Assembly: GCA_964016885.1 (NCBI GenBank)
Contig: OZ024740.1
Span: 395,002,001 to 395,066,000 of the forward strand
Length of the DNA: 64,000 bases
From: Eledone cirrhosa
Taxonomy: Eukaryota
Direction of reading: 5' to 3'
Shown here: positions 6,624 to 58,691 of the stretch, one piece after another
How the letters are laid out: every line of letters starts with the position of its first letter
Position numbering within the stretch: the stretch's first letter is position 1
The notes under the pieces: generated by a model
Database searches by the model: none
Seen by the model: only the letters and a program-made list of their open reading frames with translations
Told to the model about the DNA's origin: nothing
Made by a program: the position numbers and the translations under genes

Positions 6624-9600
6624 CCGGATCAATTATAGAAAGATTAATGAAAGCATATTATATTTTTAGGTCCTATATCACAAATATTTCTATCATGGAA
6701 AAATTTTACCAAAGCAACTGGTGCCGCACTACGTTTTCTCAATGCTAATGGAATTTTAAGGGAGATATATCTGAGATAAAGTATTATAGAAAATAAAACC
6801 AAACTACTTTTTAAACGATAGGCATGTCATTTCGATCGTATTTTAATAAAAGTATAAGATTACAGTGTGTTGTTTTAATCAAATTGCATGTCATACAAAA
6901 CCTCAACCAGTTAGAAAAATATTAACTTATCTGAATTCAACACCAAAATATACTTTGAGGTAGATGTGTTCTGTTTTCATTGTAGTTTAAGCGGACATTT
7001 AATTTTGGCCCGACAATCCATATGCCTACAAAACCTATCACGTGATATCGTTGATAGCCATGCTTCTCTCTACATCGTGTCTCTTTAACTGACTCTTTGA
7101 GGAGCGGATAACAAACGTAAACTGATGAAAGGAGAGTTGCCAGGCTCTCCCATCTCTCTACTAACTGGGCAATGTTGCCAAGTGATCATCCACTCTGATA
7201 CTCTATAGTGTTTAAATAGGGTGTAAACAGCTGTGTCATATTAGACAGTTGGGTGTCAATTGGACAGCCTCTGCGTAATCACATAGTTTCGGGTTCGATT
7301 ATACTGTGTCACCCTGGGAAAGTGCTCTCCTCTATAACAGAGTTGAACTTAGCTTAGTGGATGAATTTCGATAGACGAAAGTTGTACAGAAGCTAGATGA
7401 GCTATACCTATCCTTGGCATCAGACTTAAATTTTTTCCCGACTAAACGCAGTATTTTGGGTTCTTTTATTAATTCCAACCAGATTTCCCAGTTGGGAATA
7501 ACCCCTGCCTTTTCTTCCTCCATTCTCCCCAACCGTCCGAAGTCCTGCAAAAACTAGGGCATAAAAATATTTTAATATAACTGAATAACATTTTTTTAAA
7601 ATATGACAACAATGTTTTTAAATAATTTCCGGGGAAATGTATATACAAATGTTTTTGTTTTGATTTGATTGTTTTTTTGTTTGTTTGTTTGTTTTTTCGT
7701 TCAGTTAAAACTACACGAATAATGTCCAGCGTTTCTTTGTTTCGAGTGTTTGTCGAAACCTCTTATCATCTATTCAAGAGCCATCATTTGATCAAAAGCA
7801 TTCCAGTTGTGACTATCCCATATTTTAATTGTATCTAACACCACATTATTTAATGTGTCCTTCCCCCTATTATTTTTATTTTATTTCAAAGATTATAATT
7901 TTGCAAATATTTGTATTCAGCTTCTAGCAAGTCAAGTGGCCGTGTAAAGACTGACTTCTTAATTCCTTATTCTTATATTTACTAGGGCTGCTGTTTCAAC
8001 AGTAACAATCTCATACATCAAAAGTAAATAGTCACGCGTTATAACATGATGTACAGCAACATCCAGTAGGCAGGATTAACGGCAGATTTTCATTTGAGAA
8101 ATGTTCATCCACACGAGAGCTGTAGTGAGAAAGAAGTGTAAAAAAAACTACACTAGATAATTTTTCTTCCAAAACAATTTTTTTCTCCGCTGTTTATATC
8201 TTTCGTGTGTGTGCATTGCTTAAATATGTGAATAGTTTCCCAAGAAACAGCACTGTATTATATCACCTGGAACCACGTTTCCTGTGAAGCTAACTGTGCA
8301 TGTGCCTTATATATATGGAGACATTTAGACTCTAGGCGATCACTTGACGTGCTAAAAATAACAGCCAAATTTCCCTCATCACATCCCATAATAATTGTTT
8401 CTACTTTTGGCATAAGGCCAGCAATTATCCCAGTGCATTACTGGTATTTTATTTTATCGACCCCGTAAGGATGAAAGGCAAAGTTAACCTCGGCGGGATT
8501 TGAACTCAGAATGGCAAGGGCCGTAACTCTATGCGTCTACCGATACTGCCGCCAAATATAATATCGTTCACAATTTCCAGTTTTTGATTATGCATTATTT
8601 CCCTTAGAGCAGAGAATATAAAGGGGGATAATAGCAATCTTAATCTAAACTAAAAACAAAATTATCGTAATTATTCCCCTTACAAAAAATCTCGTAACAG
8701 AAATGGTTAAAATGACAAATGTTATTTTTATTTAATCTCAACTAGCCCTAACCGAATAGAACTACAGTCAAAAGTGATCTAGCCATGACCATCCCATGAC
8801 GTAGAGTAAACAACAAAAAGTGGTGGGGGTATACTCTATGTGGTTGTTCTGCTTGCTAGAAATAGCAGCTGAATCACCCTCATTTCTAACCCCTATGAAT
8901 GAAATTTGGCCGACGGAAAGTATGTGGTAGCATGTCTGTATGTGTGTATGTGCGCATGTGCTTATGTTTACTGTTTATGTTTACTGTTTACGCAGTGATT
9001 CGATAAAGAAATAGATAAAGTAAGTTACAGATTTCTAAATATTGGATTAGGGTCGATATGATCGACTAAATCCCTTCAAAGTCGTTCCCCTGCATGGTTG
9101 TAGTCTAATGAACAAGTACGAAAATAAAAGAAAATACGAAAGCTTATTTTGATATTGCACTGAGATAGGATATTTAACACTATTTCATATATGGATAGCC
9201 ACTTTCAAGGGAAATAACTCTGTACATCTTTATATATTGTTGTTATTTCGCTGTTACGTATCCTTTTGAACTCGAGATGTAAAATGTAAATTAGAATGTA
9301 CATAAATATTGCAAGACATTTTATCCCGTACCCTGTCAATTCCTCCATTAACGGCTCTACCGACAATGTATATATTTTTGGTTAGTTAATTGCTTCAAGT
9401 GAAGGAGGCAATCAAATCTCGCATTACATTACCGGTACTTAATTCATCATTGGAGGAAAGCAAAATCCAATCAAATGCAGTGCCATTTAAATTCAGAGGG
9501 TTGAAAATAAACACGATGAAATCTTTTAGTCAAGTTTCGGAGCTGTACTTGTTTGGCAAATATCTTGATTTGAAAGGCTTTTTATAAGAAGTGAAGCAAT

Positions 9601-9709
9601 TACATTGTGAAGAAGTCATTTAATTATAATATGAATACACATAAAATATATTCGTTCGTTAGAATGACTCTTCAACGATGTAATCGATCTAGTCAGCATG
9701 ATGGTCAAA

Positions 9710-10420
9710 TTTCTAGAAATTCCTGGCATGTTAGTACTACCAGAGAGCTCTGCCGGTTCGAGACAAACTCTACAGGGACGGTTAGACGGTCAGGCGGAGC
9801 TGTCCGAGATGGGCGCAGAGCGACGAAACTGTTCTGCGCGCACACGTCCAGTGTCTGGGTATTGCCTTGTGGAGTTTTGTCGAATAGCTAGTGTCTCGTG
9901 TAGGAGAGATCCGGCTATCAGCCGACGCCATCATGAAGATGCCCCCCATCCCCACCCCCACCCACACACACACTTTCTTTTAGAGGACAGGCAGCTTTTG
10001 TCATGAGTCCGTGGCAAAAGAAGTGTGGCAAAACAGACACTTTCCTCTTCGGTCACGCTCTCATTATCTTTTTCAAGTTCCACTTGGAAAGGAAAGTGCG
10101 GGTCGAGAGAGAAATGTTGCCTCTCAGTATGTTTGTTAAAATGTAGTTGAATGTAGCGAGGACGGTCCAAGTGGATGGGCCAACTCTGACCATACGCCTG
10201 TCGGGTGGAGAATTTCGAGAGTTGAGGGGTACCTTCCTATGGTGCTCTTGGAGATTAGGGTGTTTTAGAATCTGTGTGGTTCCTACGATACCTTTCGTTG
10301 GTGAATTTATTATTGTTATAATTTTGCTCTGTATTGTTATCTGTTGTATTTGTTTACACGTTTTGAATTTTCATCTTTTTGTAAATCCCTACTGTCTTTG
10401 TCTTTTGTATTATTCTGCAT
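9710..10420 (+). mobile_element. Decayed 3' end of an L1/Tx1-clade LINE (zf-RVT region, C-terminus, 3' UTR)
   Basis: Reads YYQRALPVRDKLYRDG*TVRRSCPRWAQSDETVLRAHVQC (LPxRxKL...CPxC...ETxxH...C) and later FFKFHLERKVRVERE...LNVARTVQVDGPTL; T-rich UTR follows. Confidence 0.75.
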
Positions 10421-10523
10421 GGTCGCCGAGGTTAACTTGGCCTTTCATCCTTACGGGGTCGATAAAATAAAGTACCAGTAATGCACTGGGTGATTGCTGG
10501 CCTTGTATCAAAAGTAGAAACAC

Positions 10524-10569
<46 letters not shown>

Positions 10570-10640
10570 GGCGGTGGATTGGCAGTATCGGTAGCGGGCC
10601 AGACGCCATGCTTTGCAGCATAGAGTTACGGCGCTTTATG

Positions 10641-12682
10641 GTCTGAGTTCAAATCCCGCCGAGGTTAACTTTGCCTTTCATTCTTACGGAGTTGATAAAA
10701 TAAAGCACCAGTAATGCACTGGGATAATTGCTGGCCTTGTGCCAAAAGTAGAAACAATTATTACCTTTTACTCTTTCTTATAACTATACATCATCAGCAT
10801 ACAACTGATTGGATATTCTATGTGGACGTTCAATCTGTTATAAATAGCAGTTAAAAATCCCTCATTACATTCTAGGATTATATTATCTAATATCTGATTA
10901 AGAAAAGGATAGAGCTGTTACAGCTGTTAGCTCGTGGCTGATCTTGAACTAAAAAGCACTAACAAACACGTCACGTCAGATGTACACTGATGCTAATCAG
11001 ATGTCAGATGTACACTGATGCAAATCACTGGAATACTCTCACAACCCACATTTTTACTCAGGAGCCGACGACCTTCAGAGTTTGATGCTCATTACTATCA
11101 ATTTCATTAAATTGGAATGCCCATCTAAAGTCATTAGTATGCACTTCCCCTTCTCTTTTGACTGTTTTATAAATACAAAAAGAGAGTAAAATAACTCGTC
11201 TAATTCATAGTGATGGGAAATGTATTGATTCAATATTTCACATTAGACTGTATATATTAGCAAACGGGAAGAGCTAAAAAGAAAGAGAGGGAAATGAATA
11301 AAAATAAGGTAGGACGAAATAGGTGGGAGCGGGGTGGTAAACTCTACACGATTTTGTCTGGACGATACAATAGATGTTCAATAACTAGATACTTTTGATA
11401 AGATAGAATATCCTGTGCTGATGAAAATGTCTGACATTCCCAGCGAAACACTTCCTGAACAAAAAATCCTTTTATCTTTTATTGTTTATGGAATAAGTGA
11501 ACAGATAGTAGGCGGCAAATTGGTATCGTCGTTAGAACATCGGATAGAATACCTATTTGTTCATGTTTTCTGAGCGTTTACAAATCTCAGTACAGTCAAG
11601 TTTATCTTTCATCCTTTTGTAGTCGGTAAAAAAAGTACCAGCCAATGGCAATGGGTTGGTGAATTGTTAGAGCGTTTGACAAGATGCCTTACAGTATTTG
11701 TTCCGTCTTTTTTTATTTTTGCATTCTGGCGTCAATGCCGGCACCGATTCTGTTGCCCAACTGTCGCAGATTTTGCTTTTTTCTATTGGTGGCGTGGAGA
11801 AGAGAGACTTGCTACATGGGCAACTGCTGGTCTTTCATAAATAAAACCTTTTCTAGGCCTGCGCCCTGGTTAAGAACATCCCATGCACAGAGGCATGATT
11901 TCACGATACTTACGGAAATCCCGGATAAACATACAGGTTTGCTGAATGTACGTATTTGAACGGAATAGGAGAGAAGAGTGTTTGAGGGAGGGAAAGAGAA
12001 CTTGACAAATAGAGTGCTAGGAATTCAGTGATGAGAGTAGTAAAGTGAAGTCTCGGGAGACAAGGCCAGAGGTAATTTGGAAAAACTAAAATCCAAGTGT
12101 GGATGTGGAAACATTAAAAGGTTATCATGGCAGATAATTTCATTTTATAATTGATGCAGCATAGCTGAATAGTTAATAGGTTTGTTTCGCAATCATAAAC
12201 GCCAGAATTCGATCCACCTGAGTGGTATATTTGACAAGTGTCATTTACCATAGTTGGAAGCCTATCGAATGAATTTTACTTGTACTTCAAATGTCCCGTC
12301 TTGTCACACATTCTCTCGTGTAGAATTGCCCTGAGAAATACGTGCCTGTTGAATGCTCAACCACATGTACGTTAATTTCACAAACCGGCCGTTTCGTTCA
12401 TTAGAAACCTAGAACATTCGTTGTGGAAACCGAGGGAAGTCTCTTCTGTTAGCTATTTAGACTGTGTCAGCTCAAATCCCGCCGAGGTTAATTTTGCCTT
12501 TCATCCTTATGGGGTCGATAAAATAAAGTACCAGTCACGCACTGGGTCGATTTAATCGACTTTCCCTTCCCCCCAAATTACTGGCCTTGTGCCTATATAA
12601 GAAACCATTATTACCTTGGATTGGCAGTATCGGTAGAGGGTCGGATGCCATGCTTTGACGCATAGAGTTACGGCCCTTTATG
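10641..12682 (+). repeat. 2.04-kb inverted, circularly permuted copy of 13889-15925
   Basis: 10641-12473 is the reverse complement of 13889-~15710, and 12469-12682 is the reverse complement of ~15711-15925. Only scattered substitutions and three indels seen. Confidence 0.95.
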
Positions 12683-13888
12683 ATCTGAGTTCAAATCCCG
12701 CCGAGGTTAACTTTGCCTTTCATCCTTACGGGGTCGATAAAATAAAGTACCAGTCACGCACTGGGGTCGATTTAATTGACTTTCCCCCTCCGCCAAAATT
12801 GCTGGCTTTGTGCCTACATAAGAAACAATTATTATTAGGGCGGTGAATTGGCGATATCGGTAAAACATCGTAAAACATGCTTTGCGGCATGTAGCTACAA
12901 CCCTTTACGTTCTGAGTTCAAATTTCACTGAAGTTAGTTTTGCCTTTCATCATTACGGGGGTGATAAAATACAATATCAGTAAAGCACTGTGGTCGATTT
13001 AATCGACTTTTCCCCTCACTTCAAATTCCTGTCATTGTCACAAAAGTAGAAATACTAATTATTTGTAAAATCTCTGTTAGTTTCAAAGCGCTAAATAGTT
13101 TATGAAATATTGATTCTCCAGACACCGACATATTAAATATTGTTGTCCTGGGAATGTGAAAAAAAACCAAAAAAACAATAAACGAATATCCCTTCTTTCA
13201 TAAGTCTGCTCCATGAGGGTTGACCTGGGGTTAAACAACTATCACAAGGGTAATACTGACGTTTGCTACGCTAAATAAGTTGATAATTTCCTTCCAAATC
13301 CGCCATGATTCCAGTTCTTGTTTAGCCTAGTATTTCATTAAATTAATTCATTTCACCTAAAAACAAAAATTGCGATATGTTTAGGGAACAGAAAAGAAAA
13401 TAGGAATTTATAACGTGTATTACTTTCCAATAAACATCTGCTAGATAAGTAAACTGAAATGATATGAAACAACATGGAAGAGGAGTCTATAAATAGGAAG
13501 CTGTGATGTTTATGACTTTCTCAAGGACATTGGTTAGTTAAATGAGGTGAATTGGTTCGATACGAGAGTACAGTGGAGTTGAAACATTAAAACACCAATA
13601 AACTGCTAGAGTCGATTTAATTGATTAAAGTGAACTTCTGCCGAAGTTAGAATTCAATATCAAATAATTGTTTGTACAGCTCGACTGTAAATTCTGTCAG
13701 GAGAAATATTTGTCGCTTGAAATCAAGTCACTGCAGCTGCTACTATTAGCAGATAAAAATAGCAGCTAAATCCTTATTATATCGCAGAAGAAGAGCTGTA
13801 TTGTATAGTGTAGTCCTAGATACATTATACCCGAAAATGACTGGATGATCATGTTTAGAATGTCTTTGGCCATAGGCCTGTCCGACCG

Positions 13889-15925
13889 GAGCTGACACAG
13901 TCTAAATAGCTAACAGAACAGACTTCCCTCGGTTTCCACAACGAATGTTCTAGGTTTCTAATGAACGAAACGGCCGGTTTGTGAAATTAACGTACATGTG
14001 GTTGAGCATTCAACAGGCACGTATTTCTCAGGGCAATTCTACACGAGAGAATGTGTGACAAGACGGGACCTTTGAAGTACAAGTAAAATTCATTCGATAG
14101 GCTTCCAACTATGGTAAATGACACTTGTCAAATATACCACTCAGGTGGATCGAATTCTGGCGTTTATGATTGCGAAACAAACCTATTAACTATTCAGCTA
14201 TGCTGCATCAATTATAAAATGAAATTATCTGCCATGATAACCTTTTAATGTTTCCACATCCACACTTGGATTTTAGTTTTTCTAAATTACCTCTGGCCTT
14301 GTCTCCCGAGACTTCACTTTACTACTCTCATCACTGAATTCCTAGCACTCTATTTGTCAAGTTCTCTTTCCCTCCCTCAAACACTCTTCTCTCCTATTCC
14401 GTTCAAATACGTACATTCAGCAAACCTGTATGTTTATCCGGGATTTCCGTAAGTATCGTAAAATCATGCCTCTGTGCATGGGATGTTCTTAACCAGGGCA
14501 CAGGCCTAGAAAAGGTTTTATTTATGAATTTATGAAAGACCAGCAGTTGCCCATGTAGCAAGTCTCTCTTCTCCACGCCACCAATAGAAAAAAGCAAAAT
14601 CTGCGACAGTTGGGCAACAGAATCGGTGCCGGCATTGACGCCAGAATGCAAAAATAAAAAAAGACGGAACAAATACTGTAAGGCATCTTGTCAAACGCTC
14701 TAACAATTCACCAACCCATTGCCATTGGCTGGTACTTTTTTTACCGACTACAAAAGGGTGAAAGATAAACTTGACTTTATTGAGATTTGTAAACGCTCAG
14801 AAAACATGAACAAATAAGTATTCTATCAGATGTTCTAACGACGATACCAATTTGCCGCCTACTATCTGTTCACTTATTCCATAAACAATAAAAGATAAAA
14901 GGATTTTTTGTTCAGGAAGTGTTTCGCTGGGAATGTCAGACATTTTCATCAGCACAGGATATTCTATCTTATCAAAAGTATCTAGTTATTGAACATCTAT
15001 TGTATCGTCCAGACAAAATCGTGTAGAGTTTACCACCCCGCTCCCACCTATTTCGTCCTACCTTATTTTTATTCATTTCCCTCTCTTTCTTTTTAGCTCT
15101 TCCCGTTTGCTAATATATACAGTCTAATGTGAAATATTGAATCAATACATTTCCCATCACTATGAATTAGACGAGTTATTTTACTCTCTTTTTGTATTTA
15201 TAAAATAGTCAAAAGAGAAGGGGAAGTGCATACTAATGACTTTAGATGGGCATTCCAATTTAATGAAATTGATAGTAATGAGCATCAAACTCTGAAGGTC
15301 GTCGGCTCCTGAGTAAAAATGTGGGTTGTGAGAGTATTCCAGTGATTTGCAGTCATAGCATCAGTGTACATCTGACGTGACGTGTTTGTTAGTGCTTTTT
15401 AGTTCAAGATCAGCCACGAGCTAACAGCTGTAACAGCTCTATCCTTTTCTTAATCAGATATTAGATAATATAATCCTAGAATGTAATGAGGGATTTTTAA
15501 CTGCTATTTATAACAGATTGAACGTCCACATAGAATATCCAATCAGTTGTATGCTGATGATGTATAGTTATAAGAAAGAGTAAAAGGTAATAATTGTTTC
15601 TACTTTTGGCACAAGGCCAGCAATTATCCCAGTGCATTACTGGTGCTTTATTTTATCTACTCCGTAAGAATGAAAGGCAAAGTTAACCTCGGTGGGATTT
15701 GAACTCAGACCATAAAGGGCCGTAACTCTATGCGTCAAAGCATGGCATCCGACCCTCTACCGATACTGCCAATCCAAGGTAATAATGGTTTCTTATATAG
15801 GCACAAGGCCAGTAATTTGGGGGGAAGGGAAAGTCGATTAAATAGACCCCAGTGCGTGACTGGTACTTTATTTTATCGACCCCATAAGGATGAAAGGCAA
15901 AATTAACCTCGGCGGGATTTGAGCT
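13889..15925 (-). repeat. Donor segment of the inverted duplication, bounded by GAGCT direct repeats
   Basis: GAGCT at 13889-13893 and 15921-15925. Both ends continue into native flanks (an older repeat on the left; SINE TSD aatccaaggtaataat on the right). Confidence 0.9.
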
Positions 15926-17396
15926 CATATCATAAAGAATCCAAGGTAATAATATCTGTATATGAGGTGTTTATAACAAAATGGAAATGTTTATATTTTT
16001 AAATAACAATTTTTCTTTTCTTCTTTTAAATTGGCTTCATTCAAGAGATCATTACGTTAAATAGGAAAATGGTTTTTTAATAGCTTTTATATTTGTTTAT
16101 TGTTAACTGAGTTTATCTCCTATGAGATGTTGCTATTACTTAGTCCTTTAATCAAAATCGTTTTAGGCACAACTCCATCAATTTTTCAAGTCCCTATCCA
16201 AATTTTCATTTCGTTTTTGTTTTTTTTAAAGGCGGCACTGTTTGATTTTAAGGCGATTCAGCAGCTATTAAGTCCAATATCACGTAGAGTTTATTTGTTG
16301 GTGTCAGTGATTATTGTAACGTACAATTGACCGCTGCTTTTGTAGTTCTAGATTTAATTTTCTGCACTAAGTTTTATTTCCTGTCAAATGCTAGGTCTAC
16401 CTACACGGTTCAAATGTTAAAAATAGCCATTGCACAAATGATTCTCAGACTCAGAAAATATCAAATACGGAGTCATGGAACATTGGGGGTGCTCTAGTCT
16501 TGGCCATCTAATACTGTTTTATCCAACGTTTCCATCTTCTTTTCTCCGACAGTATATGGTTTGAGAAAGATTTGGTTGCTATTTCTAGCAGATCCAGCGA
16601 CCATATAGATGTTTACTCGTTCATACATCTAACTTGGGTTTTGGAATTAAGAGCAGGTTCTCTTTATATGGTGCTTCACAATTTCGGTCAACACCCAACT
16701 CTGGATATTCCGAGTAATAAAGTCTAATTCTGTTGGGAATATTGTTGTCAGTTTTTAGCAAGCAGACCAATGTTTAAGTATGTTCCATCGAACCAGGAAA
16801 ATTCTGTTATATTTTTAAGAAAAGTGTATCTTGAACTGTATGATCTAATGTGTCCTTTTTTATGACGGTGGAGAAGCTGGCATTTTATGCTAGATTTGGT
16901 TGCTATTTCTAGGCGTTTGAGCAGTCACGTAAACACCTCCATAGTCGGCTTTTCATTCTATCTGGATTGATGTTAAAGTAGGAAACATCAGAGACCAATG
17001 CTAGCTGCCACTCTACTTGAAAAGGGATCGTTGAGCTAACAAATGTGCCTCTTTGTAAATTAATTAAATGTTCCATTCAAAAGAAGCATTTAGCAAATAA
17101 TTGAGTTTGTCGGATCTTTCATGTATAATGTAAAGGAAATCATAGTTTCCTTTGAAATTTGAATGATACAGAAGCAATGCTTAAATTTCCTGGTGCAATT
17201 GCTAAAAGTGATGCAGGTGAATGTATGTTCTTGTGTAAGAAGTTTCGCTGTCTTCCGCCGTTCTTGCCGTATATATTTACTTTTACAACAATGATAATCT
17301 GTAGTATATTCCCATCTGTTTCTCTGTCTACATACCTACCTGGCTTCCTATCGTCCTATCTGTTTGTTTGCCATTCTATTTATCTATCCATTGTTA

Positions 17397-17468
<72 letters not shown>

Positions 17469-17660
17469 AATCAAAAATATTGATCGAATAAATAACTCAA
17501 AACATCAAGTAAAGTGAAAGAAATATATTTCATTATTGATACTTGGAGGTTTTACTCAGTAAAGGTTTTCGAACTGTAGTGAAAACTTGATATATATATA
17601 TATATAATTGGTGTGGAATGCTTAAAGCGTCCGTATGCGGTATACCATTTGAGCACTCGA

Positions 17661-17755
17661 GACGTATGTGAGGATCTTGCGATTTCAGAGTCAGGCTCGA
17701 TCACTGTATCGATCGTGCCTCGAGCTGGTCACCAGAGAAACGATTGTAATATGTC
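17661..17755 (+). ncRNA. Hammerhead motif with mutated core (C3->G), probably inactive
   Basis: gacgtat-GTGAGGA-tct...aga-GAAA-cgattg-TA^-atatgtc; 7-bp stem I; lies between (TA)n tracts. Confidence 0.55.
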
Positions 17756-17815
17756 TAATAAATTCGTCGCACCACTGATTCTCTGTTTCTTATGTGATAT
17801 ATATACATATATATA

Positions 17816-18599
17816 TTGTCTGTTTACCCTCGCGTCCCCTTTATTTACGTGTCCCAACGACTTTTTTTAGCCTTTGCTCGCACCAACCGGAGGTATATGG
17901 TCTTTAAAGCGATGAAATGCCTATGATGGTTGGAAGATTACTTATGAAGGACAAACTTTTTTCATATGTAACCCATTTGCAACTCCGCAGTGCCCTTATT
18001 ATCATATTTACACATATTTTTTCCTCTGCTGCTACCCGTCTTTTTCGTTCTATGTATCTTTACCCTTTCTAGCAGTCTCTCTCTCTGTTAGCCTCTTCCT
18101 CACCCTTCACTCACTCATTCTCTGTCACTACCTCTCCTCCTCCTCTTTCTTCCCGTTTGACCTGTGTGTAATTCTTTTCTCTCGCACGCTTGGCCAAGCT
18201 GGTCCGAATTTTTTCTCTCTCTCGTCTACGATTTCACAGAACTTATGTTTACCGAATTCGCAGACCAGACCCCTTCTTCCTCCCGTTAGACCTGTGCGAA
18301 ATTCCTTCCTTGCTCACATTTCAACCAGGTCTCTCGTTCACGATTTCACCGAATTTAAATTCATAGAAATCTGGGACTTGTCTCTTTCTTCCTCACTTTC
18401 TGTTGCTTCACCATTTTGTTTGTTTACCCTCGCGTCCTCTTTATATACGTGTCCCAACGACTTTTTTTAGCCGTTGCTCGCACCAACCGGAGGTATATGG
18501 TCTTTAAAGCGATGAAATGCCTATGATGGTTGGAAGATCACTGATGAATGACAAACCTTTTCATATGTAACCCATTTGCAACTCCGCAGCGCCCTTATT

Positions 18600-18606: not shown

Positions 18607-18681
<75 letters not shown>

Positions 18682-18811
18682 CAAAAGTTGTATTTAAAAT
18701 TGTTGGGTTACAAAAAGTAAATATTTTATAACTGATATAAAGCACTCGACAAGTTTTTGGAGTAGATATACGATATTAAACAAATGGAAACTATATTTAT
18801 AAAACCATATT

Positions 18812-18877
18812 TATTTCATTATACATATTTCAGGGATACCATATTAAAAATATGGCATGCCTTCGTCAGATAAAATA
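18812..18877 (-). ncRNA. Type I hammerhead ribozyme (mirror of 19081-19146)
   Basis: Reverse complement of the right-arm motif. Confidence 0.85.
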
Positions 18878-19080
18878 CAATATATAAACAGTTTTATAAG
18901 TAATTTTGACGTACCCTATTATAAGCGACCATTATATTTGGTAGCTGTCTGGATAGTGATTTGTTTATAATTATTATAACTAAATAATTATAAACAAATC
19001 ACTATCCAGACAGCTACCAAATATAATGGTCGCTTATAATAGGGTACGTCAAAATTACTTATAAAACTGTTTATATATTG

Positions 19081-19146
19081 TATTTTATCTGACGAAGGCA
19101 TGCCATATTTTTAATATGGTATCCCTGAAATATGTATAATGAAATA
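19081..19146 (+). ncRNA. Type I hammerhead ribozyme, family A
   Basis: tattttat-CTGACGA-long stem II (aggcatgccatatt/aatatggtatccct)-GAAA-tatgta-TA^-atgaaata; 8-bp stem I; quasi-palindromic helix III. Confidence 0.85.
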
Positions 19147-19186
19147 AATATGGTTTTATAAATATAGTTTCCATTTGTTTAATATC

Positions 19187-19264
<78 letters not shown>

Positions 19265-22720: not shown

Positions 22721-24481
22721 TGTGTGTGTGTGTGTGTGTTTGTGTTTCTCGGTAAATAATGCTCTATTATAAAAAGATGTACCTATGTCACAAATAATAT
22801 GAACATTGTTCCTGTCAAAATAAATTCTGCAGAATTACCATGACATGAGTCTCATTCAGTAAAATGGCCAACAATTCAGTGAATTGTTTCCAGGGCAACG
22901 TCGAGGAAACGTTTAGTTAAAATCATAAAATTGCAAGGCGGAAACTTAGCAGTTTTAAAAACGTATCAATGAAATTTGTATTGCAATTAATATTTGATTC
23001 TAATTAACTGTAATAATTTGTTGTTATTGGTAGGATTACAGGGGTGGTTAATTGGGGGGGCATGCTCCCTCTAATAATTATATATTTTTCCCCAAACTAC
23101 CAAAATACACATTTGTATATGCGCTACAATTAATGTACATGTTATGTTAATCGCATATCGAAGTTTTTTTATATCTTAGTATTTGATAATAATTGTTTCT
23201 ACTTTTGGCACAAGGCCAGCAATTATCGCAGTGTATTACTGGTACTTTATTTTATCGACCCCGTAAGGATGAAAGGCAAAGTTAACCTCGACGGGATTTG
23301 AACTCAGACCATAAAGGGCCATAACTCTCTGCTGCAAAGCATGGCGTCAGACCCTCTACCGATACAACCAATCCACCGCCCTCGGATTAATTAACTTTGT
23401 TCTTAAGAAATAAAATGAATGGCTAAATTTTCGTATTTGTTGCTAATCGATTGTAAACAACTGGGCCAAATGCAATACTTTATTTTTCGAGACAAAATAT
23501 GTCTATTGGTTTAGTACGAAGTTACGGTAAATGTTCTTTGGATGGGGAACAATATAATATATCCATACACAACTAAAAAACGTTGAAGGATATAAAACTA
23601 TATTTAAGAAGCCTACTATACTGTAGAATAATTGATTCTACTTTAGGCACAAGGTCAGCAATTTGAGGGGATAGGGAAAGTCGAATAAATCGACCCCAGT
23701 GCATTACTGGTACTTTATTTTCTCGACCCCGTAAGGATGAAAGGCAAAGCTAACCTCAGCGGACTTTGAACTCAGAACGTAAAGGGCCGTAACTCTATGC
23801 AGCGAAGCATGTTCTCCGACACTCTACCGATTCTGCCAATCCACCGCCCTTACTATACTGTACAATAATAATTTCTTTTATAGGTCAGCAATTTTGAGGG
23901 AGGGGAAAGTCGATTAAATCGACCCCAGTACATTACTGGTACTTTATTTTATCGACCCCGTAAGGATGAAAGCAAAGTTAACCTCGGCGGATTTTGAACT
24001 CAGGCCGTAAAGGGTCGTAACTCTATGCTGCAAAGCATGGCGTCCTTACTATACTGTATAATAATAAATATCGAAGCAAAGGAATTAATTAGAAAAGGAA
24101 GACATGTTTGGGAACAGATTCACTTTTGTTTCAAGGTATTCGTTCTACGAGAAAAAAAATAGGAAAATTAGATCCATGGCAAAATTCCAGGCATTTTAAT
24201 TTATATGTTTTTGTTGAATATATTATAAGTGAAGTGATATTTACAACAGACATTACATTTTGAAACTCCCGCCTCTACAAATAGTGGAAAATGTATGTAA
24301 ATATTGAATATAATTGAGGTCTATGTGGTAATGTGAATGTGGAACTACGGAAAGATAATTGTAAGTGGGTGAAGGAGTGTTAATTTATTATGGTTAGTAA
24401 AGTGTACACATACACGCACACACGCAGTTTATTAATCTCTACTTTGGTATTGAGTATTAATTCACGCCTACGTCAACACTG

Positions 24482-24512
<31 letters not shown>

Positions 24513-24612
24513 CTACTATATATATGAAAGAGTATGTGTGTATGTATGTTTGTACGTATGTGTGTATGTCACTGAAAGACTCCGAAGCGGTGCATCCTAG
24601 AGAAAAAGGTAT

Positions 24613-27600
24613 TTAGAATGTTAGTATCAGTGTATATATATTATTAAGAATGACAATAAATGCAGGTGAGTGTTGTGACATGGTTTTACTTCACTGAAGT
24701 CAAATAAATTAATAGAAATAATTTTTACCACATGTTGATGGTTAGTTGGTCACAACTCCCAGACCGGAGTGTGTAGAGAAGAACAGAAATCTTCTCTTGG
24801 TAAGGTTCAAGTGGTCCTTTCGGTTGCCGGTGCAGGAAGTGAGAGAGTAATGCCTTGATGTTCTCAAATATAGTCCCCAGGGGGACGCAACTCCATTTAG
24901 TACATGGATCTGCCACTGGGTGTCGCGACCATCACAAAGGGACGCAACTCCTATACGTATCTGCCACTGGGAGTCGCGACTGTCACAAAGAGACGCAACT
25001 CCGCTACAGTACCCTCCTCCAGACGATAGGCGAAAAGCCCGAAGGTAACTGTAGCGAACCCACAAGCATGGGCTCCCAGCACAGGCATGAAATAGTAACG
25101 AAAAGGTATATGTGTACATAGTAATAGAATAAAGAGAAAAACAAAAAAGGCTCCAGTGGCCAGTTCACATGAAAACAGTTTGGCAGATTTTTTGGGGGCC
25201 AGTGGACTCTTCGACCGGAACGGGTCGTGGCCTTGTATGTAGGTGAAGGTGGGGCAGGAGGAGCAGGTGTATGCACAAGAGAGAAAGATTGGGGTATTTG
25301 TGGCTCGGGTGTATGAGCGTCATTGTATGCCCTTTTTAGTCTATCCACCGAAATTGTCTCTCTGGACCCCTTAATGTCTACAGTGAAATGTTTGTCAGTA
25401 CGTGCTAACACACGGTAGGGTCCAGAGTACGGCTGTGTGAGGGGTGGAGTAACCGCATCGTTTCTGACGAATACATGTGTCCACGAGGCAATATCCCTGC
25501 AGCGTTAATAGTTTGTTTCCTAGTATTCATGGGCGGTAAGTCCTGAAAATAGGAGCGCAAACGAGATACGTCGGAAAGAGGGTCCTGGAAAGCAAGATCA
25601 ACAGGGGCAAGCATTTACCCAAGAAACGCTAGAGGAGCACCATACAGTAATTCGGCCGGGGAGAACCCAAGGTCCTCCTTTATTGATGACCAATTTCCTA
25701 ACAACACAATAGGAAGGTACTCGCTCCAACGTTAAGAGTCTGTATAGGCGCGAAGAGCGGCCTTTAATTTGCGGTGGAATCGTTCCACCATTCCGTTCGA
25801 AGCAGGATAAGCTGTGGTCCGAATCCGTTGAGCACCAATGATCTTTGTCAGCTCAGAGAAAAGATGAGACTCAAATTGTCTACCCCGGTCTGTGGTGACT
25901 GTAGTTGGTACCCCAAAGCGGGTAATCCACCCTGATACCAGGGCACGCGCTACAGTCTCAGCAGTAATATCTTTTAAGGGGATGGCTTCAGGCCATCGCG
26001 AAAAACGATCGATACAGGTCAAGAGGTACGAATATCCACTACTGAATGGACAAGGTCCAACGATATCAATGTGGATGAGTTGAAACCGAGCATCTGGGGT
26101 ACTGAAAGTACCAAGTGGAGTCCGGACGTGTCTGTGGACTTTAGATCTCTGACACTGTGTGCAGGAACGGCACCAGACAGTAATTTCTCGCTTCATATTG
26201 GGCCAGAAAAATCTAGCCGTTATAAGATTTACTGTGGCAGAAATTCCTGGGTGAGAAATGCTGTGCAAAGCAAGGAACACAATTCGACGGTGAGTCTCAG
26301 GAACATATGGTCGTGGTGAATCCGTAGATACATCACATAGAATCTGCCTGTCGGTGGTCGACAAGGGCAGATATCTGAAGAGGCAAGTCGCAAACTCGGC
26401 AGAAAGAGTATCCAACGATTGGAGTGCAGGTTGGTCTGCAGCTAAACGACCTAAGTCGATCTCCTGGGATGACGAGATGGAGCTGATTGGCAAACGTGAC
26501 AATGCGTCTGCAGCTATGTTAAGCGAGCCAGCAATGTGCTGGATATCATTTGTAAATTGCGAAATGTAATCCAGGTGCCTTGTCTCTCTGGACGAATATC
26601 TGTCGGCTTTAGCCCTCACGCGAAGGTCAGAGGTTTGTGGTCGGTTAAAACAGTAACATTTCTCTCCTCAAGAATATGAGAGAAATGTTTCACCGACAGA
26701 TATATGGCTAATAATTTCCGCCCAAACGTGCTGTAACGCGTTTGTGCTGGTTTCAGCTTCCTTGAGAAAAATGCCAAAGGTTGTTGGTTTCCAGCATTGT
26801 ACTGCTGTAAAACTTCCCCCACAGCGGTATCAGATGCATCAACACAAAGCGAAAGCTTGGCCTCTGGTACCGGGTGGGCTAGCAAAGATGAACTAGCGAG
26901 TGCTCTCTTGGCAGTCTGGAAGTCTTTAAGCTGTCCTTGTGTCAAGGAAATATCCTCATTCTTCTCACGACGATTTTTCAAAATGTCAGTAAGGGAAGAT
27001 AGCAAATTAGCACAATGAGGAACGAAACGCCTATAGAAATTGATTAGGCCTAAGAAGTGATGCAACTGGTGAAGTGTAGTAGGCGGAGGTAACTCCTGTA
27101 TGGCTTGAACTCGCTGAGGCAGCGGCCTAATACCTTCGACGTCGATGAGGTGGCCTAAAAAATTTAGCGAAGTGGAACCGAAAACACACTTTGCGGGATT
27201 CACACGAACGCGGTAATCCTGAAGTCGCCGAAATAAGAGATGCATGTGGCCCATATGCTCTTCCGGGGAGGAACTAGCGACGAGAAGATCGTCTAAGTAT
27301 GCATAAACGAAGTCCAGACCACTAGTGACTTCGTCTATGAACCGCTGAAAAGTGCTAGCGGCGTTCCTGAGTCCGAAAGGGATGGTAAGGATCCGAAAAG
27401 AGTTGTGATCGCCGTTTTCGGAATATCCTCCTTCCTGACCGTAATTTGGTGGTAAGCTCGCACTAAATCTAGTTTTGAAAAAATCTTACACCCCTGCAAT
27501 GAAGATGCGAAATCCTGGAGATGGGGAATCCGGGACGGTCATAGCATTTAACCTCCTGTAATCCTCAGTGGATCTCCAGTCGCCGGAAGTCTTGGGCACC

Positions 27601-29494
27601 ATGTGTAACGGTGAAGCCCAAGGACTCATAGATGGGCGAATAATGCCCAGCTGCAGCATATGGTCGAACTCGGACCGTGCTGCCTTTAATTTGTCCACCG
27701 GTAAGCGGCGTGGACGCGAAAACACTGGAGCACTGGTGGTGGAAATGAAATGTTCAGTTGAGTGTGTTGGCTCAGTGACTCGAAAATTTCCATCGGTGAG
27801 CTCCGGGAAAGAACCTAACAACGAATGGTAGGCGTCTCCAGCGGCAGCGATGAAGAAAATGGGGCTGACAGTTGGGGCATTGGCTTTCCGGCCACGAATT
27901 TAAAAACCGGTGATGTCATCCACCAGGCGTTGGCCACGGACGTCCACAGTCAAAGAGAAGTTGTGGAGGAAATCCGCACTTAAGATCGGCAACCGTAAAA
28001 ATCCACTTAAAATCTGTACGAAGATTTAGGAATTTGAGAGGAAGTGAGATTTGCCCGTACGTCTTTATAGACGAGTGATTAACGGTCTGCAGAGTAACGG
28101 ATGACTCCACGGGGGTATCTTTCAGGCAATGGACCGACCAAATACTACATGAGGCTCCTGTATCCACGAGGAAACCTCTTCCCGACATAAGGTCCTTAAT
28201 GAAGAAATGGCGGTTTGGTAGCTTTATGTTGAGGTCAACTGCCCCCATCAGCCGACCTCTTTGGCGTTTCCCGCCTTATGAAACGAGCAAGGTTCCACGC
28301 AGTGGTTCGCGCTCTCGGCAAATCGCTCATGGTACCAGCATAAAGATGAAGCTGGGGATTTGGGGCGGCGTCTAAAAGAGTGAGATCTCCTGCGCGATCG
28401 CGAACAGGCACCACACCAGACCTTCATCTTCTGGACCTCCAGGTTGAGTTCCTGAATGGACTTCTGCATCGCCATAATGGCTGAGTGAGATGCCATTGTT
28501 ATACCGTAGGTAATCTGCAAAAAACAAATCGTCTCCGTTTGGAAAAATGTCTCCAACACGAGGGAAAAGGAAAACAAAATCGCTTGTTTTTCTCTGTCAA
28601 ACAACTGGACAGTAAAAAGAATGCATCCGAGACAACATGTAAAGGAGCTACTAACCGAGCGATGTCATTAACAAGGTATAGGCAGGGAATTTAAAACTAA
28701 AACTAATATGGCGGACGATTTCGCGCCCAAAACACTATTGATGGAGAAAAAAGCCGCCATCTTGTCATCCTCAAAAATTTTAGCCAGAGAAAAGAAGAGA
28801 AGAAAAGAAGAAAAAACATTCATACAATTGTTGTTTCGCTAGGAAACTAGCGGCAATATTATGTTATCTTTTTTTTTTGTGTTTGTGTGTAAATAAATGG
28901 AATGTTCGCTTTGCACATATGAGGAGTTTGATTGTTAAATGTTACAGATAAAGATGCTGAAATCAGTAAAATAGAGGCAGATCGGAATGAAGTGTGTTGT
29001 TCTGTATTAAATGTTTTTTTTCTTTCTCTTTTTTTTTTGTATATACACATGACACCGTTTCCCTTTCTTTTTTTTTTTTTAAACGTCAGGTCAACCAATT
29101 AAGAATGTTAGTATCAGTGTATATATATTATTAAGAATGACAATAAATGCAGGTGAGTGTTGTGACATGGTTTTACTTCACAGAAGTCAAATAAATCAAT
29201 AGAAATAATTTTTACATGTTGATGGTCAGTTGGTCACAACTCCCAGACCGAAGTGTGTAGAGAAGAACAGAAATCTTCTCTTGGTAAGGTTCAAGTGGTC
29301 CTTTCGGCTGCCGGTGCAGGAAGTGGGAGAGGTAATGCCTTGATGTTCTTAAATATATAGTCTCCAGGGGGACGCAACTCCATTTAGTACATGGATCTGC
29401 CACTGGGAGTCGCGACCGTCACAAAGGGACGCAACTCCTATACGTATCTGCTACTGGGAGTCGCGACTGTCACAAAGGGACGCAATCCGCCACG
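24613..29494 (-). mobile_element. Ty3/Gypsy LTR retrotransposon, near complete, decayed
   Basis: ~395-bp LTRs 24613-25008 and 29100-29494; TSD GGTAT at 24608-24612 and 29495-29499; PBS-like TGGTTGACCTGACG after the 5' LTR; PPT GGAGGAGGG before the 3' LTR; PR-RT-RH-INT order. Confidence 0.97.
25180..28500 (-). pseudogene. pol: Frameshifted Gypsy gag C-terminus and pol
   Basis: Gag knuckle CWYHERFAESANHCVEPC; protease FLVDTGAS; RT SPWASPLHMVPK, DYRRLN, AYLDD (~27290); RNase H VDASD; integrase [27 protein letters not shown]. Split over several ORFs. Confidence 0.95.
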
Positions 29495-48178: not shown

Positions 48179-51100
48179 GATGGCTGCAATCTCTGCCAAG
48201 AGTATTGCAATCGCTTGTCAGATTCAGATGTGTGACGCTCGGATATGACTTTTCAAGCCTGCTAACACTGACGACAACTATGGATCTCTCTGGCGTGAGG
48301 TCCTGCACCAACATCAGGTTGCTCCTGAACCCTCACATCACCGTGGAGATCATAGTTCACTGGTTCTCTTCGAACATGACTGCGACTGTGGCTCCTGAGA
48401 CCAGATTTGGTCAAGCAAATTTTTCCACACTCAGGGTACTTCAATTCAATGTAAACACCGATCGTTTCGAGAAATACACCAGGGCATTGCTTACGCACAT
48501 CCCGTTTTATCTTCTCGTGCTCTGTGCATCTGTCCTCAAAATTATGGACCCAATCATCCACCATTCCACGCTAAGTCTCCCTTTCAAGAGCTATCTCCCA
48601 GTCAGCCATCATCAAACCAGTTTTTTTCAATGAGTCCTTTACATAATCCTTGAATCGGAGCCTTGGATTGTGAGGTGGTCTCTTACCCTCACAAAGCTCG
48701 CCATACAAGAGTTGTTTTGGGGATTCGATCATCCTCCATTCTGCAGAGGTGTCCGGTCCATCGCAAACGCCGTTGGTGGATGATACTCTCAATGCTCCGA
48801 CACTCACTTCTCTTAAGGACCTCAACATCACTCACATGCATCTGCCACTTGATACCGAGCATCTTTCTGAGACACTGCTGGTGAAACCGTTCTAGTCGGT
48901 GGATATGCCATTTGTAGGCAACCCATGTCTCACGTGCATACAGCAAAGCTGGCAGTACACATGCAGCATACACTCTCACCTTGGTCCTCATTGTGATTCC
49001 TCGCCTGCACCAAAGACGGTCGTTGAGCTTTCCAAATGACTCACTTGCCTTACTAACACGTAGACCAACTTCTGCATCCAGAGAGCAGGCCACACTCAGA
49101 GTACTCCCCAAATACACAAATGTGTCAGCAGCCTTCAGCTTTTGACCGTATACGTATATGGAGGGTTCATTGAAAACTTTATCCGGTGCAGGTTGGTACA
49201 TGACGACAGTCTTCTTCAGACTGATTGTCAGTCCCAAAGCACTGCACGCATTGGGAGTGTGCAAAGAGATCACAATCATCTGCATATAAAAGTTCTCTGA
49301 TCAAGGTACTCAGTACCTTAGTGTTGGCAGTGAGACGCCTAAGGTTAAACAGCTTGCCGGAACTGAGATAGATACCGTGTTGACAATTCTTGAAGGTCAT
49401 GAAGAACACCCTTGCGAAATACAAGGCAAACAAAGCTGGTGCAGGTATATCACCCTGCTTGACAGCATTTTCAACAGAGATTGGCTCAGGCACTTTACCT
49501 CCAACATTCACCCATACCTGCATGTCATGGTGGATGAGTTTCAGAATGTTCACAAACTTTTCAGGACAGCCCAATCTCTCCAAAATAACCCACAAAGCCT
49601 TCCGATTAACGGTGTCAAATGCCTTGGTCAGATCGACAAAAACTTGCTATAAGTCCATGCGCTGCTCAATGCATTTCTCTTGAAGTCATCTGGCCGAGAA
49701 GATCATGTCAACAGTGCCTCTGCCATTCCTAAAGCCACATTGGGACTCAGGAAGTACCTCAACAGCAATGTGCTGTATCAATCTGTCCAACAAAATCCTG
49801 CTCAAGATCTTCCCAGCCACAGATAGCAGCGAGATACCTCTGTAGTTTCCACAGTCATCTTTGGCTCCCTTTCCTTTGAAAAGTACCACGATCAATGCAT
49901 CTTTCCAGTCCTGTGGCACATCTTCTTCATTCCAAACATTCACAAAGAGATCAGTGGGGCGGTTTAAGAGGTTATCACCAGCACCTTGAAAATCTCGGCA
50001 CTGAGTCCATCCATTCCAGGTGACTTGCCGCTGTTTAATTTGGCAATGGCCTTAGCCACCTCATCAAATGAAGGGGGATCAGCCATTGCCAGCTTTGTAG
50101 GTCTTGATGGAATCGACTGGATGAACTCATCATCAATTTCTGATGGTCTGTTGAGAATCTCATCAAAGTGGTCATGCCACTTGATCAGGATTTCCTTCGA
50201 ATCTCTGAGCAATTCCTTGCCGTCTCTGGAGCGAAGTTATGATATTTGTGAACCGGTCGGAACATACACCTCCCTGAGCAGACTGTTTAGGAGCTTTGTA
50301 TCATGTCTATCTGAGGCCTTCTGGATTTCATCAGCCTTTTGGCTCCACCAGGTATCCTGCATGACTCTCAATCGATGTTGCACACGTGCCTTGATCTGCC
50401 TGAAGGTCCGGTCACTCCTGTCAGAACGTGTCTCACACAACAAGGATGTCAGCACCTTTTGTTTCTCTTCAAGCAAGGTCTGGACCACTGCATCATTTTC
50501 ATCGAACCAGTCTTTATATTGGTATGACCCAAAACTCCAGCACTAACATCATAGACGGTTTTCTTCAATGATTCCCACGTGTTTTCACATTCCATGGACT
50601 CAAGGGACTTCGACAGCTCAGCTCTGACTTTCTCTGTTTTCAGACGAGCCACGTTTAGTTGTTTTGGAAGTGAAACCTTCTTCCCCCTTACTTTGGGCTT
50701 CACAACAAATTGAAACTTGGCGCGCACCAGACGATGATCAGTCCAACATTCCGCGCCTCGCAATACACAATCCAATGTGATATACCTGATATCACGTTTC
50801 CTCGTTAAAAAAAAGTCAATAAGGTGCCACTTCTTGGAACATGGATGCATCCAAGTTGTCTTATATTTGTCTTTCTGCTGAAAGAGCGTGTTCCCAACAA
50901 AAAGATCCATCTCAGTGCACATCTGCAACAGAAGTAGACCATTGTTATTGCACTTACCTACTCCATTCCTGCTCCTCACACGCCAAGCTTCCCAGTCATT
51001 ACCAACACGTGCATTAAAATCACCAAGGATGACAATCTTGTCTGCATAAGGTATACCATGCAAAAACATGTAGAAACTTAGTTTTTCATCCTCACTGGCA

Positions 51101-51600
51101 CACATAGTAGGAGCGTACACACTGACCAGAGTCACAAAGCGGTTTTGAATCAAAGGGACTCTCATGGACATTATCCGATCATTGAATCCACAAGGAAGAT
51201 TTTCCAGCTTTGAGACGATTCCATTCTTGACAGCAAATGCGACCCCTGCCTCTCTCCTACAACCCTCTGCTCCACCACTCCAATAGAAGGTATATCCTCC
51301 CTTCTGTTCTGTGAATTGACCCTCACCTGCCAATCTCGTTTCTGAAAGAGCAACGATATCCATGCTATAGCGATTGAATTCCCTCGACACCAAAGCAGAT
51401 CTTCTTTCAGAGCGATTTTTACTGGACAGGGAATCAAATAAAATTCTTACATTCCAGCAATATTCAAAGGTTTGAACCTCTTTGCAGTTGTAGGATAATG
51501 ACCGGACCCACGCTGCGGTGTCATGGGAACCTGCCGGGCCAGACCCCTTCACAATAAGTTCCAGAGCCCTTACTGCCATTGACTTCAAGGTTATCATGTC
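48179..51600 (-). mobile_element. RTE-clade LINE, near full length, frameshifted
   Basis: APE: WNVR, DIVALSETR, ILGDFNA, TDHRLV. RT: KSPGMDG, NYRGISLL, QCGFR, VKQGD, LLYADD, YLGS. C-terminal RRLRWTGH and a decayed C2H2-like motif. 5' boundary approximate. Confidence 0.95.
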
Positions 51601-51699
51601 ATCATAGAGTTTGGTGCAATTTTAGGCTACGGCCAGCCACACGAACCTCTAACAGATCCTGAACAAGCGATGCAGAATATTTAAAGATAAATTTCGTTA

Positions 51700-56268: not shown

Positions 56269-57957
56269 TCATCATCATCATCATCATCGGGTTTAGCGTC
56301 CGTGTTCCACGCTTGTATGGGTTTGGACGGGGGTTTTCCCACTTGAGGCAAGAGTGGTTGTCTTGCTCGCATAGGACTGTCTGGCGGGTTTTCTACAGCT
56401 GGATGCCCTTCCTAACACCAACCACATTTACAGTGTGGGGCTGGGAGGTTTTTACCGTGTTGCCTACACGGCCACATTACAGCGTGGACTGTCTGGCGGG
56501 TTTTCTACAGCTGGATGCCCTTCCTAACGCCAACCACATTTACAGTGTGGGGCTGGGAGGTTTTTACCGTGTTGCCTACACGGCCACATTTACAGCGTGG
56601 ACTGTGTGTTTTTTTGTCGTGACACCTACACGATCTCATTTGTTTCGGCCTGGATGTTGTGGGACCAACATAACTTTACATTGAAAGGGGCGGTGTGGAT
56701 GGGGTGGAGATGGTGGGACGGGGGTGTGTGATAGAGATGCCTACTGACTGTAGTAGGTTTTTACTTTGTATTTAGGTAAGGCGGGTCTTCTCTATTACTG
56801 AGTACCGCCAAAGGTCTCGGTCCTGTGACATTGTCTTGGAAAGGTGTAAGCGTGTGAGGTCGGAATTTATCATGTCGTCCCAGGTTTTTCTGGGTCTGCC
56901 TACTCCGTGGCTACCGTCTATCTTTATTGCCATGCACTTTGTTATACAGCTGTCGTCTTTCATGCGCATCACGTGACCGTACCAACGTAGCCTTCTCTCG
57001 AGTAAACAACATCTGATCCCTCTTATTTCTAATTTTTTCCTTAGTTCGTTTATGCTTTGCCGTTCACGTATATTACTATTGCACATCCAGCGGAGCATGC
57101 AAGCTTCGTTCCTCTCTAGTCTGCGTATATCCTCTGCACACAATGCCCAGGTCTCACTGCCATGCAGCATTGCTGTTCGTATGCAGGCATCGTATAACCT
57201 GCCTTTCATTTTTAGGGAGAACCCTCTAGCGGCTAATAGTGGTATAAGCTCTCTGAACTTTTTCCATCCAGTTCTGACTCTAGCTACTGTACTTTCAGAG
57301 CACCCTCCCCCACTGCTGATTTTGTCACCCAGGTAACGGAAGCTGTCCACTATTTCTATAGAACCCTCTGCGCAGTTGAAGGAGCTAGTATTTTGTGGGC
57401 ACTTGCTGCTACTTATTGCACCAGAGCACCGGCCACATGTAAAATCTATGTTCTTAGTTAGCTTACCTGTGATCCCACTACATCTTTTATGCACCCATAC
57501 TTTGCATTTGGGACATAAAATGGAGTTTCTACCTACGCCTTTCCTACACACGGAGCATGGCCATTTCCCAGAAGGGACCGCCGCCTTATTTTCTTTCCTA
57601 CAAACTAGAACTTTAGTCTTAGCCAGGTTAATTTTAAGGCCTTTTGATTCTAGGCCTTGCTTCCATGTTTGGAATTTCTTCTCTAGTTCGGTCATTGATT
57701 CAGCTATGAGCGTTAGATCATCTGCGTATAGGAGTTCCCATGGGCAGCCGGTCTTGAACTCCTCTGTTATAGCCTGAAGGGCAATAATAAATAGTAGGGG
57801 GCTAAGAACAGAGCCCTGATGGACACCAACTTTTACGCTAAACTCTTCACTATATTCGTTGTTAATTCTAACCTTACTGACTGTTTCTTTATACATGGCT
57901 TGTATAGCTCTCACAAGCCATTCGTCAACACCTAGTTTTCTAAGAGACCACCAGGTA
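56269..57957 (-). mobile_element. 5'-truncated RTE-X-like LINE with (TGA)n tail
   Basis: Open RT frame; 3' UTR with a 112-bp tandem duplication (56374, 56486, partial 56599); (ATC)n on plus at 56269. Confidence 0.9.
56772..57956 (-). CDS. Uninterrupted partial ORF2: reverse transcriptase with embedded PHD finger (no native start)
   Basis: [23 protein letters not shown]...CPKC..WVHKRC...[17 protein letters not shown]. The frame is open upstream of the listed start ([14 protein letters not shown]) to the truncation. Confidence 0.85.
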
Positions 57958-57984
57958 AATGTATGTATATATGTATGTATATAG

Positions 57985-58024
<40 letters not shown>

Positions 58025-58025: not shown

Positions 58026-58175
<150 letters not shown>

Positions 58176-58298
58176 TTCTATTTAAATTGTTGGGATACAA
58201 CAAGCAAAGATTTTTATAACTGATATAAAGCACTCAACAAATATTTGGAGTAAAAATACGATATTAACAAATGGAAACTATATTTATAAAACCATATT

Positions 58299-58363
58299 TA
58301 TTTCATTATACATATTTCAAGGACACCAAGTTAAATTATGGTGTGCTTTCATCAGATAAAATA
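58299..58363 (-). ncRNA. Type I hammerhead ribozyme (mirror of 58533-58597)
   Basis: Reverse complement of the right-arm motif. Confidence 0.85.
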
Positions 58364-58597: not shown

Positions 58598-58636
58598 AAT
58601 ATGGTTTTATAAATATAGTTTCCATTTGTTAATATC

Positions 58637-58691
<55 letters not shown>

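Follow-up and report, generated by a model that had tools for sequence, protein, structure and literature searches.

A rotated inverted duplication opened in SINE homology in the genome of Eledone cirrhosa, possibly produced by repair of a single break

The stretch of Eledone cirrhosa DNA analysed here (64 000 nt, called the window below; assembly GCA_964016885.1, contig OZ024740.1, positions 395,002,001 to 395,066,000 of the forward strand) contains at 10641-12682 a real, clean and non-coding duplication of 13889-15925 that is both rotated and inverted; this structure is confirmed. Both ends of the copy lie inside a high-copy short interspersed nuclear element (SINE) with a B box and an (ATT)n tail. 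For its origin, we give roughly even chances to a single double-strand break in a target SINE (T) that was repaired by copying from a neighbouring SINE pair, with no free circle. Rotated duplications are known already; what is unusual in this case is that the duplication is inverted and was opened in SINE homology.

Comparison of the window with itself gave two inverted matches, 10.4-12.8 kb against 13.9-15.9 kb. On the minus strand the order of the donor is C-A, whereas that of the copy is A-C. The blocks thus show the cyclic shift characteristic of a rotated (AB-to-BA) duplication: the two ends of the donor are fused within the copy, and the two ends of the copy adjoin in the donor (15711/15710). 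The segments are the following.

10641-12473, plus strand: copy segment A (tail of donor SINE D2 and 1.7 kb that is mostly not repeated), inverted copy of 15710-13889
12469-12473, plus strand: new joint, 5-bp microhomology common to donor 13893-13889 and 15925-15921
12469-12682, plus strand: copy segment C (tail of donor SINE D1, target-site duplication, head of D2), inverted copy of 15925-15711
12683-13888, no strand assigned: spacer S, 1206 bp, single-copy, between copy and donor
13889-15710, minus strand: donor segment A, delimited by alignment
15711-15925, minus strand: donor segment C, delimited by alignment

Global alignment with the reverse complement of the donor showed 13 substitutions and net +19 and −8 indels in segment A, and 1 substitution and a 1-bp deletion in segment C, i.e. 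14 substitutions (0.7%) and three indels (+19 net, −8, −1) overall. A preliminary description of this DNA had proposed an inverted permuted duplication with a unit of 2032 bp, a copy of 2042 bp and these same indels; the alignments and the self-comparison bear this out, and all of its coordinates that were checked proved right. The 5-bp joint that it had placed at 12469-12473 was also recovered: exactly five bases (AGCTC) are common to the two donor ends, and sharing of at least five bases occurs in 0.67% of random joins of local DNA. The observed order along the locus is P-Th-A-C-Tt-S-A'-C'-Y.

Two details of the copy/donor comparison stand apart. At the +19 site, the copy (10973-11028) is a 28-bp two-unit tandem, and the donor counterpart (15335-15386) may be the derived state, because it resembles a 23-bp deletion with a 4-base insertion. 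In addition, 5 of the 14 substitutions fall within 71 bp (11542-11612; P ~0.01 by simulation) beside an old SINE remnant, and this cluster is possibly a conversion tract.

The SINE involved has the features of a transfer RNA-derived element (RNA polymerase III boxes, simple-repeat tail, target-site duplications and high copy number). With the usual A-box and B-box patterns, the B-box pattern was found in 3 of 3 SINE copies and the strict A-box pattern in 0 of 3; copy s23850 fits the A box by eye. Target-site duplications of 11-20 bp flank 4 of the 10 unrelated copies that were surveyed. At least 11 other copies are present within the window, and read depth over the SINE is very high, nearly all of the depth of the 255,558 aligned contigs of run X3 lying on SINE parts. 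Rfam gave no match at gathering score that would name the family and a literature search with two motifs returned one irrelevant paper; the element may resemble octopus SINEs. The copies and parts of copies at the locus are listed here.

10424-10569, plus strand: SINE L0 of the short-tail type, 5'-truncated, with an (ATT)n run at its end
10570-10640, plus strand: head of the putative target SINE T; 7 markers differ from donor D2
10634-10640, plus strand: 7-bp switch window at the left joint (T head to D2 tail)
12676-12682, plus strand: 7-bp switch window at the right joint (D2 head to T tail)
12683-12837, plus strand: tail of the putative target SINE T, long-tail type
12838-13062, plus strand: older SINE R2, ~75% alike to its neighbours
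15595-15775, minus strand: donor SINE D2, short-tail type, with an 11-bp target-site duplication (15786-15776 / 15594-15584)
15787-15937, minus strand: donor SINE D1, 5'-truncated, long-tail type, with a 16-bp target-site duplication (15953-15938 / 15786-15771)

In the register of the SINE, the seven sites at which only the left joint differs from D2 (10595-10633) all precede the seven at which only the right joint differs (10641-10724), an order with P ~3e-4 if markers were ordered at random; site 10658 is private to the donor and site 10693 differs in all three SINEs. The switch point is consequently one 7-bp window (10634-10640 = 12676-12682), and the only repeat at the copy joints is this shared window, which is duplicated. 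The single in-register SINE-SINE exchange point put forward in the preliminary description is thereby upheld. The reciprocity of the SINE joints taken alone is modest evidence, weaker than it appears, because two independent switches within 150 bp of homology would share one marker interval 14% of the time. Target SINE T, as reassembled from 10570-10640 and 12683-12837, is 90.6% alike to D2 over 149 bp, and its tail is closer to D1 (129 of 146 columns) than to D2 (103 of 146, with a 29-bp gap). The 5-bp joint lies within D1, 6-10 nt from the SINE position of the switch window; switch window, 5' end of D1 and 5-bp joint all fall within ~17 nt of one SINE position.

SINE copies are clustered head-to-tail at 10424-13062, 15595-15937 and 23187-24045. 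The element re-inserts at (ATT)-like ends of earlier copies, and target-site duplications start in the tail motif. One 1079-bp contig of run X1, which is from another organism, is ~90% alike to 10245-10425 up to the start of L0 and has another 132 bases for which no alignment is displayed there; it could correspond to a site without L0.

The right copy (13889-15925) is the ancestral donor, because nested target-site duplications flank D1-D2, whereas apart from tail-like letters no matching target-site duplication accompanies the chimeric SINEs at either joint of the copy. The 16-bp duplication of D1 includes the first five bases of D2 and is nested with the 11-bp duplication of D2; judged from sequence, this nesting marks the combination of D1, D2, segment A and the right flank as the state left by retrotransposition. 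The polarity given in the preliminary description thus gains new support. Subfamily coupling of heads and tails among 11 unrelated SINE copies agrees weakly with it (D2-type heads are followed by a short tail in 3 of 3 cases, and 0 of 3 long-tailed copies have a D2-type head). The reverse polarity, with the left copy ancestral and a circle excised by SINE-SINE recombination and inserted at microhomology, was rejected, since the nested duplications tie D1-D2 to both donor flanks.

Public reads contain part of the stretch in 5 of the 8 listed runs; X3, X4 and X5 come from one sample (S3), possibly the assembled individual, and seven runs were compared, over 10200-13888. The extra copy seems to be present in the reads, because contigs of A and C are ~1.6-fold deeper than the spacer contig in this one sample. 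In X3, a 1648-bp contig on A has a depth of 13, compared with 8.17 for a 1026-bp spacer contig. For C, the depths of a 54-bp contig found only at the boundary between D1 and D2 are 13, 18.6 and 13 compared with 8.17, 11.6 and 7.99 for the spacer. The expected ratios are 1.0 without duplication, 1.33-1.46 for a heterozygous and 1.70-1.88 for a homozygous one; tested against 1.0, z was 2.4-4.3 under assumed read lengths of 250-100 and even coverage. For the spacer itself, each of the three runs has one contig that agrees with it at all of 904 bases. Of 9 differences, 4 are displayed for the X3 contig on A, and the contig has the donor letter at each of them; its length indicates that the donor's 8 and the copy's 19 extra bases are both retained, which suggests collapsed copies. 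The contig that covers the end of A continues into the spacer without a branch and with the donor-type joint only, in 3 of 3 runs of S3, and raw restriction site-associated DNA (RAD) reads on distinguishing sites are donor-type in 4 of 4 cases (3 in X6 and 1 in X7, runs that barely cover unique DNA). X1 and X2 (other organisms, small shares) contributed mostly SINE pile-up and no usable ortholog.

The reading to which we give even chances would proceed as follows. A break would occur in T at the 7-bp switch window. The left end would pair with the head of D2, then ~3 kb away and inverted, and copy 1.83 kb through the tail of D2 into A. The right end would pair with the same SINE pair and C (214 bp) would be copied, either by leftward extension of the right end or by a switch of the left strand to D1 at microhomology. 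The new strands would finally join at the 5-bp microhomology, the donor staying intact. Rotated order and reciprocal joints would both follow because copying from either end begins at one and the same position in the homology between the SINEs. A single event would account for the three joints, the proximity and the intact donor; the same three joints can come from one break because the opening point lies in homology common to target and donor. The near-register of the 5-bp joint with the switch window and the closeness of D1 to the T tail are as expected if the register of the break guided the joint, a hint that the circle and inversion routes leave unexplained.

Such copying has precedents in several systems. 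For human repair-mediated duplications, donors were within 5 kb in 824 of 1136 cases, and 20 two-donor chimeras were explained by copying from both ends followed by annealing at microhomology (PMC2671141). The present insert resembles them in location and scar: it splits T at 10640/12683, its donor is 1206 bp away (<5 kb) with target-site duplications intact, as in capture through synthesis-dependent strand annealing (SDSA), and it has microhomology with no polyA and no new target-site duplication. Kilobase copying in mouse cells ends by microhomology joining or nucleotide addition (PMC5104497), and two-ended SDSA (PMC3962482) as well as aborted SDSA with alternative end joining (PMC8951532) are described from the Drosophila germline. 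Each step of the break-repair route has an experimental precedent. A non-exhaustive literature search, by title and start of abstract, found no circle-free derivation of rotated duplications.

Several observations weigh against break repair. Nothing in the sequence argues decisively against a circle or several steps, since the same joints come from all of these routes. Near-terminal mismatches are subject to proofreading, and T-type markers are kept 8 bp apart on either side of the switch window; no conversion tract is seen there, and little room is left for the priming of two ends. The divergence between T and D2 is 9.4%, which also weighs on the circle-crossover and inversion routes; in Drosophila a divergence of 1.4% already suppressed recombination (PMC3962482). 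Proximal repair-mediated duplications reach only 619 bp (PMC2671141), compared with 2042 bp here. As for the reads, in 3 of 3 runs of S3 the new joint is spanned by none of the listed contigs, and no contig has the letter of the copy at 12443; this is not equal to absence of the joint, because contigs drop branches and the last copy/donor difference is only 30 bases from it. The empty allele was likewise not observed in the reads, in which SINE pile-up hid locus-specific joints.

The preliminary description favoured re-integration of an extrachromosomal circle and named template switching as the alternative. Its structure and joints hold, and template switching belongs to the family of routes that we favour, but the free circle is not supported over its rivals. 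A 2032-bp circle that was closed through the 5-bp microhomology and then returned to the chromosome by a single crossover of its D2 with chromosomal T predicts the rotated order, the 5-bp joint and the reciprocal joints. Microhomology-mediated joining is reported to be the main germline route to circles (PMC10581685) and reporter circles do integrate in the mouse germline (bioRxiv 10.64898/2026.09.03.749254). However, two independent rare events are needed, and the circle would have bypassed its own donor, to which it is identical over 2 kb, as well as 11 or more further SINE copies in this window alone, in favour of a neighbour that is 90.6% alike over 149 bp. Furthermore, circle-attributed human duplications open without homology (PMC7450558), whereas this one is opened in homology, and source orientation is kept in 79 of 80 same-chromosome AB-to-BA insertions (bioRxiv 10.64898/2026.09.03.749254), whereas it is inverted here. 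We therefore regard the free circle as unlikely. A series of chromosomal steps with no circle is tentatively placed slightly above it, still on the unlikely side. In one form, C-A would first be duplicated in tandem at microhomology, one SINE inversion between T and D2 would come next, and the inverted repeats so created would then mediate a flip. In the other, two inversions that overlap would precede an ordinary crossover with a standard chromosome, located in the spacer; symbolic bookkeeping rebuilt the observed order exactly in 3 of the 3 routes tried. A single SINE-SINE crossover in such a series predicts the exact reciprocity and the short distance, the 0.7% divergence between copy and donor could be allelic, and tandem duplication with later events gives false positives of the circle pattern (PMC7188851). 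On the other hand, three events would be required at one 5-kb locus, the near-register of the 5-bp joint with the switch window is left unexplained, and no intermediate allele was seen in read data that are too thin for that search.

An assembly artefact is improbable in our judgement; in it, the shared spacer or the inverted repeats would have led to the merging of a standard with a rearranged haplotype, or of a flipped interior. It would fit the possibly allelic level of the copy/donor difference, the unbranched donor-type joint between A and spacer in the S3 contigs and the donor-type RAD reads. It is opposed by the ~1.6-fold depth of the A and C contigs and by the A contig that would, as from collapsed copies, keep the extra bases of both; the missing joint is, for the reason given above, not to be taken as absence.

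Rotated duplications have been attributed to circles in human, cattle, tilapia and yeast (PMC7450558, PMC7188851), and also among polymorphic insertions of the human genome (bioRxiv 10.64898/2026.09.03.749254). Circle-mediated segmental duplications, in which A-B/C-D becomes B-A/D-C (Chicote et al. 2020, PMC7450558, where cases from yeast, tilapia vasa and cattle KIT are cited), share with the present case the rotated order, the non-tandem arrangement and a short closing microhomology (5 bp here; microhomology or a small indel is expected at that joint). Their cases measure 22-3918 kb, are separated by 0.09-58 Mb or placed on different chromosomes, and have 1-2 bp of microhomology and no homology at the opening or insertion points, whereas the unit described here is 2 kb, lies 1.2 kb from its copy and was opened in register within the 149 bp of SINE homology. 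Duplications mediated by extrachromosomal circular DNA (eccDNA; Takahashi and Innan 2020, PMC7188851) likewise show two parallel lines in dot plots, with the circle deduced from order alone; unlike here, breakpoints were confirmed with reads and outgroups, and 3 of 52 candidates were kept after removal of tandem-duplication look-alikes. Human germline AB-to-BA insertions (Zhang et al., bioRxiv 10.64898/2026.09.03.749254) are similar in having a source of up to 5 kb on the same chromosome, and microhomology of at least 5 bp is enriched among them (23 of 82). Insertions overlapping transposable elements were filtered out in that study, so that an inverted SINE-opened case would be excluded; its supplements may list its one inverted case, and the terms 'template switch', 'SDSA' and 'homologous recombination' are absent from its main text.

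The repair-mediated duplications of Pace et al. (2009, PMC2671141) also lie inside a transposable element, with an intact donor at most 5 kb away and two-donor microhomology chimeras; the word 'circular' is absent from the main text. Their proximal cases (≤619 bp) are primed by 2-9 nt of microhomology, whereas the present 2-kb insert would be primed in a homeologous SINE and its two 'donors' abut, therefore giving rotation. The mouse system (2016, PMC5104497) and aborted two-ended SDSA in Drosophila (PMC8951532) share homology-primed kilobase copying with a microhomology end; they are experimental reporters with near-perfect homology, and outward two-ended copying that gives a rotated insert is not described in the parts of these papers considered.

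Among 10 open reading frames of at least 90 aa in 8000-18000, two are inside A, both of <100 aa, and there is no long reading frame in the duplication; Rfam gave 4 matches, all below gathering scores, with no RNA family in the duplication. The product is non-coding and probably neutral. The 1.8-kb near-identical inverted repeats around a 1.4-kb interior could flip. The idea of a rolling-circle or tyrosine-recombinase element gained no support, since the DNA of A outside the SINE occurs two times in the window and several bins have a depth close to that of a single copy. No second rotated pair was seen among the 10 non-SINE repeat pairs listed in the window.

Elsewhere in the window, two copies of a (TA)n-flanked element (18680-19195 and 58170-58640) are ~81% alike. 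Each ends in its own long palindrome (433 bp with 97.9% and 385 bp with 96.6% self-complementarity) with a different fold-back point, which suggests independent fold-back rebuilding or arm-to-arm conversion. Larger elements are:

24611-29493, minus strand: long terminal repeat (LTR) retrotransposon, 400-bp direct repeats of 94.75% identity; Pfam matches to reverse transcriptase, RNase H and integrase in separate frames
48689-51621 and 56772-57986: remains of non-LTR retrotransposons, with one frame for an endonuclease and one for a reverse transcriptase, the latter with a PHD-finger match

The non-LTR remains are possible partners of the SINE.

Taken by itself, the locus records one non-coding event and gives no sign of function. 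Its interest lies in the use of rotated order as the footprint of circular-DNA re-integration: from this order, one preprint attributes 82 of 327 human source-resolved insertions to eccDNA (bioRxiv 10.64898/2026.09.03.749254). Here the footprint, with three joints resolved to the base, can be accounted for in full with no circle, because target and donor share the homology in which the opening point lies. If the circle were nevertheless the true origin, this would be a rare circle integrated by homeologous crossover. Neighbouring SINEs might more generally serve as portals for two-ended copying, in which case SINE-rich genomes would routinely yield 'circle-like' rotated duplications and some AB-to-BA eccDNA calls would be ordinary break repair; we consider this wider proposal speculative and rather doubtful. 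Should many SINE-opened cases exist in the genome, circle and copying would become testable through the distance of the target SINE and through population intermediates.

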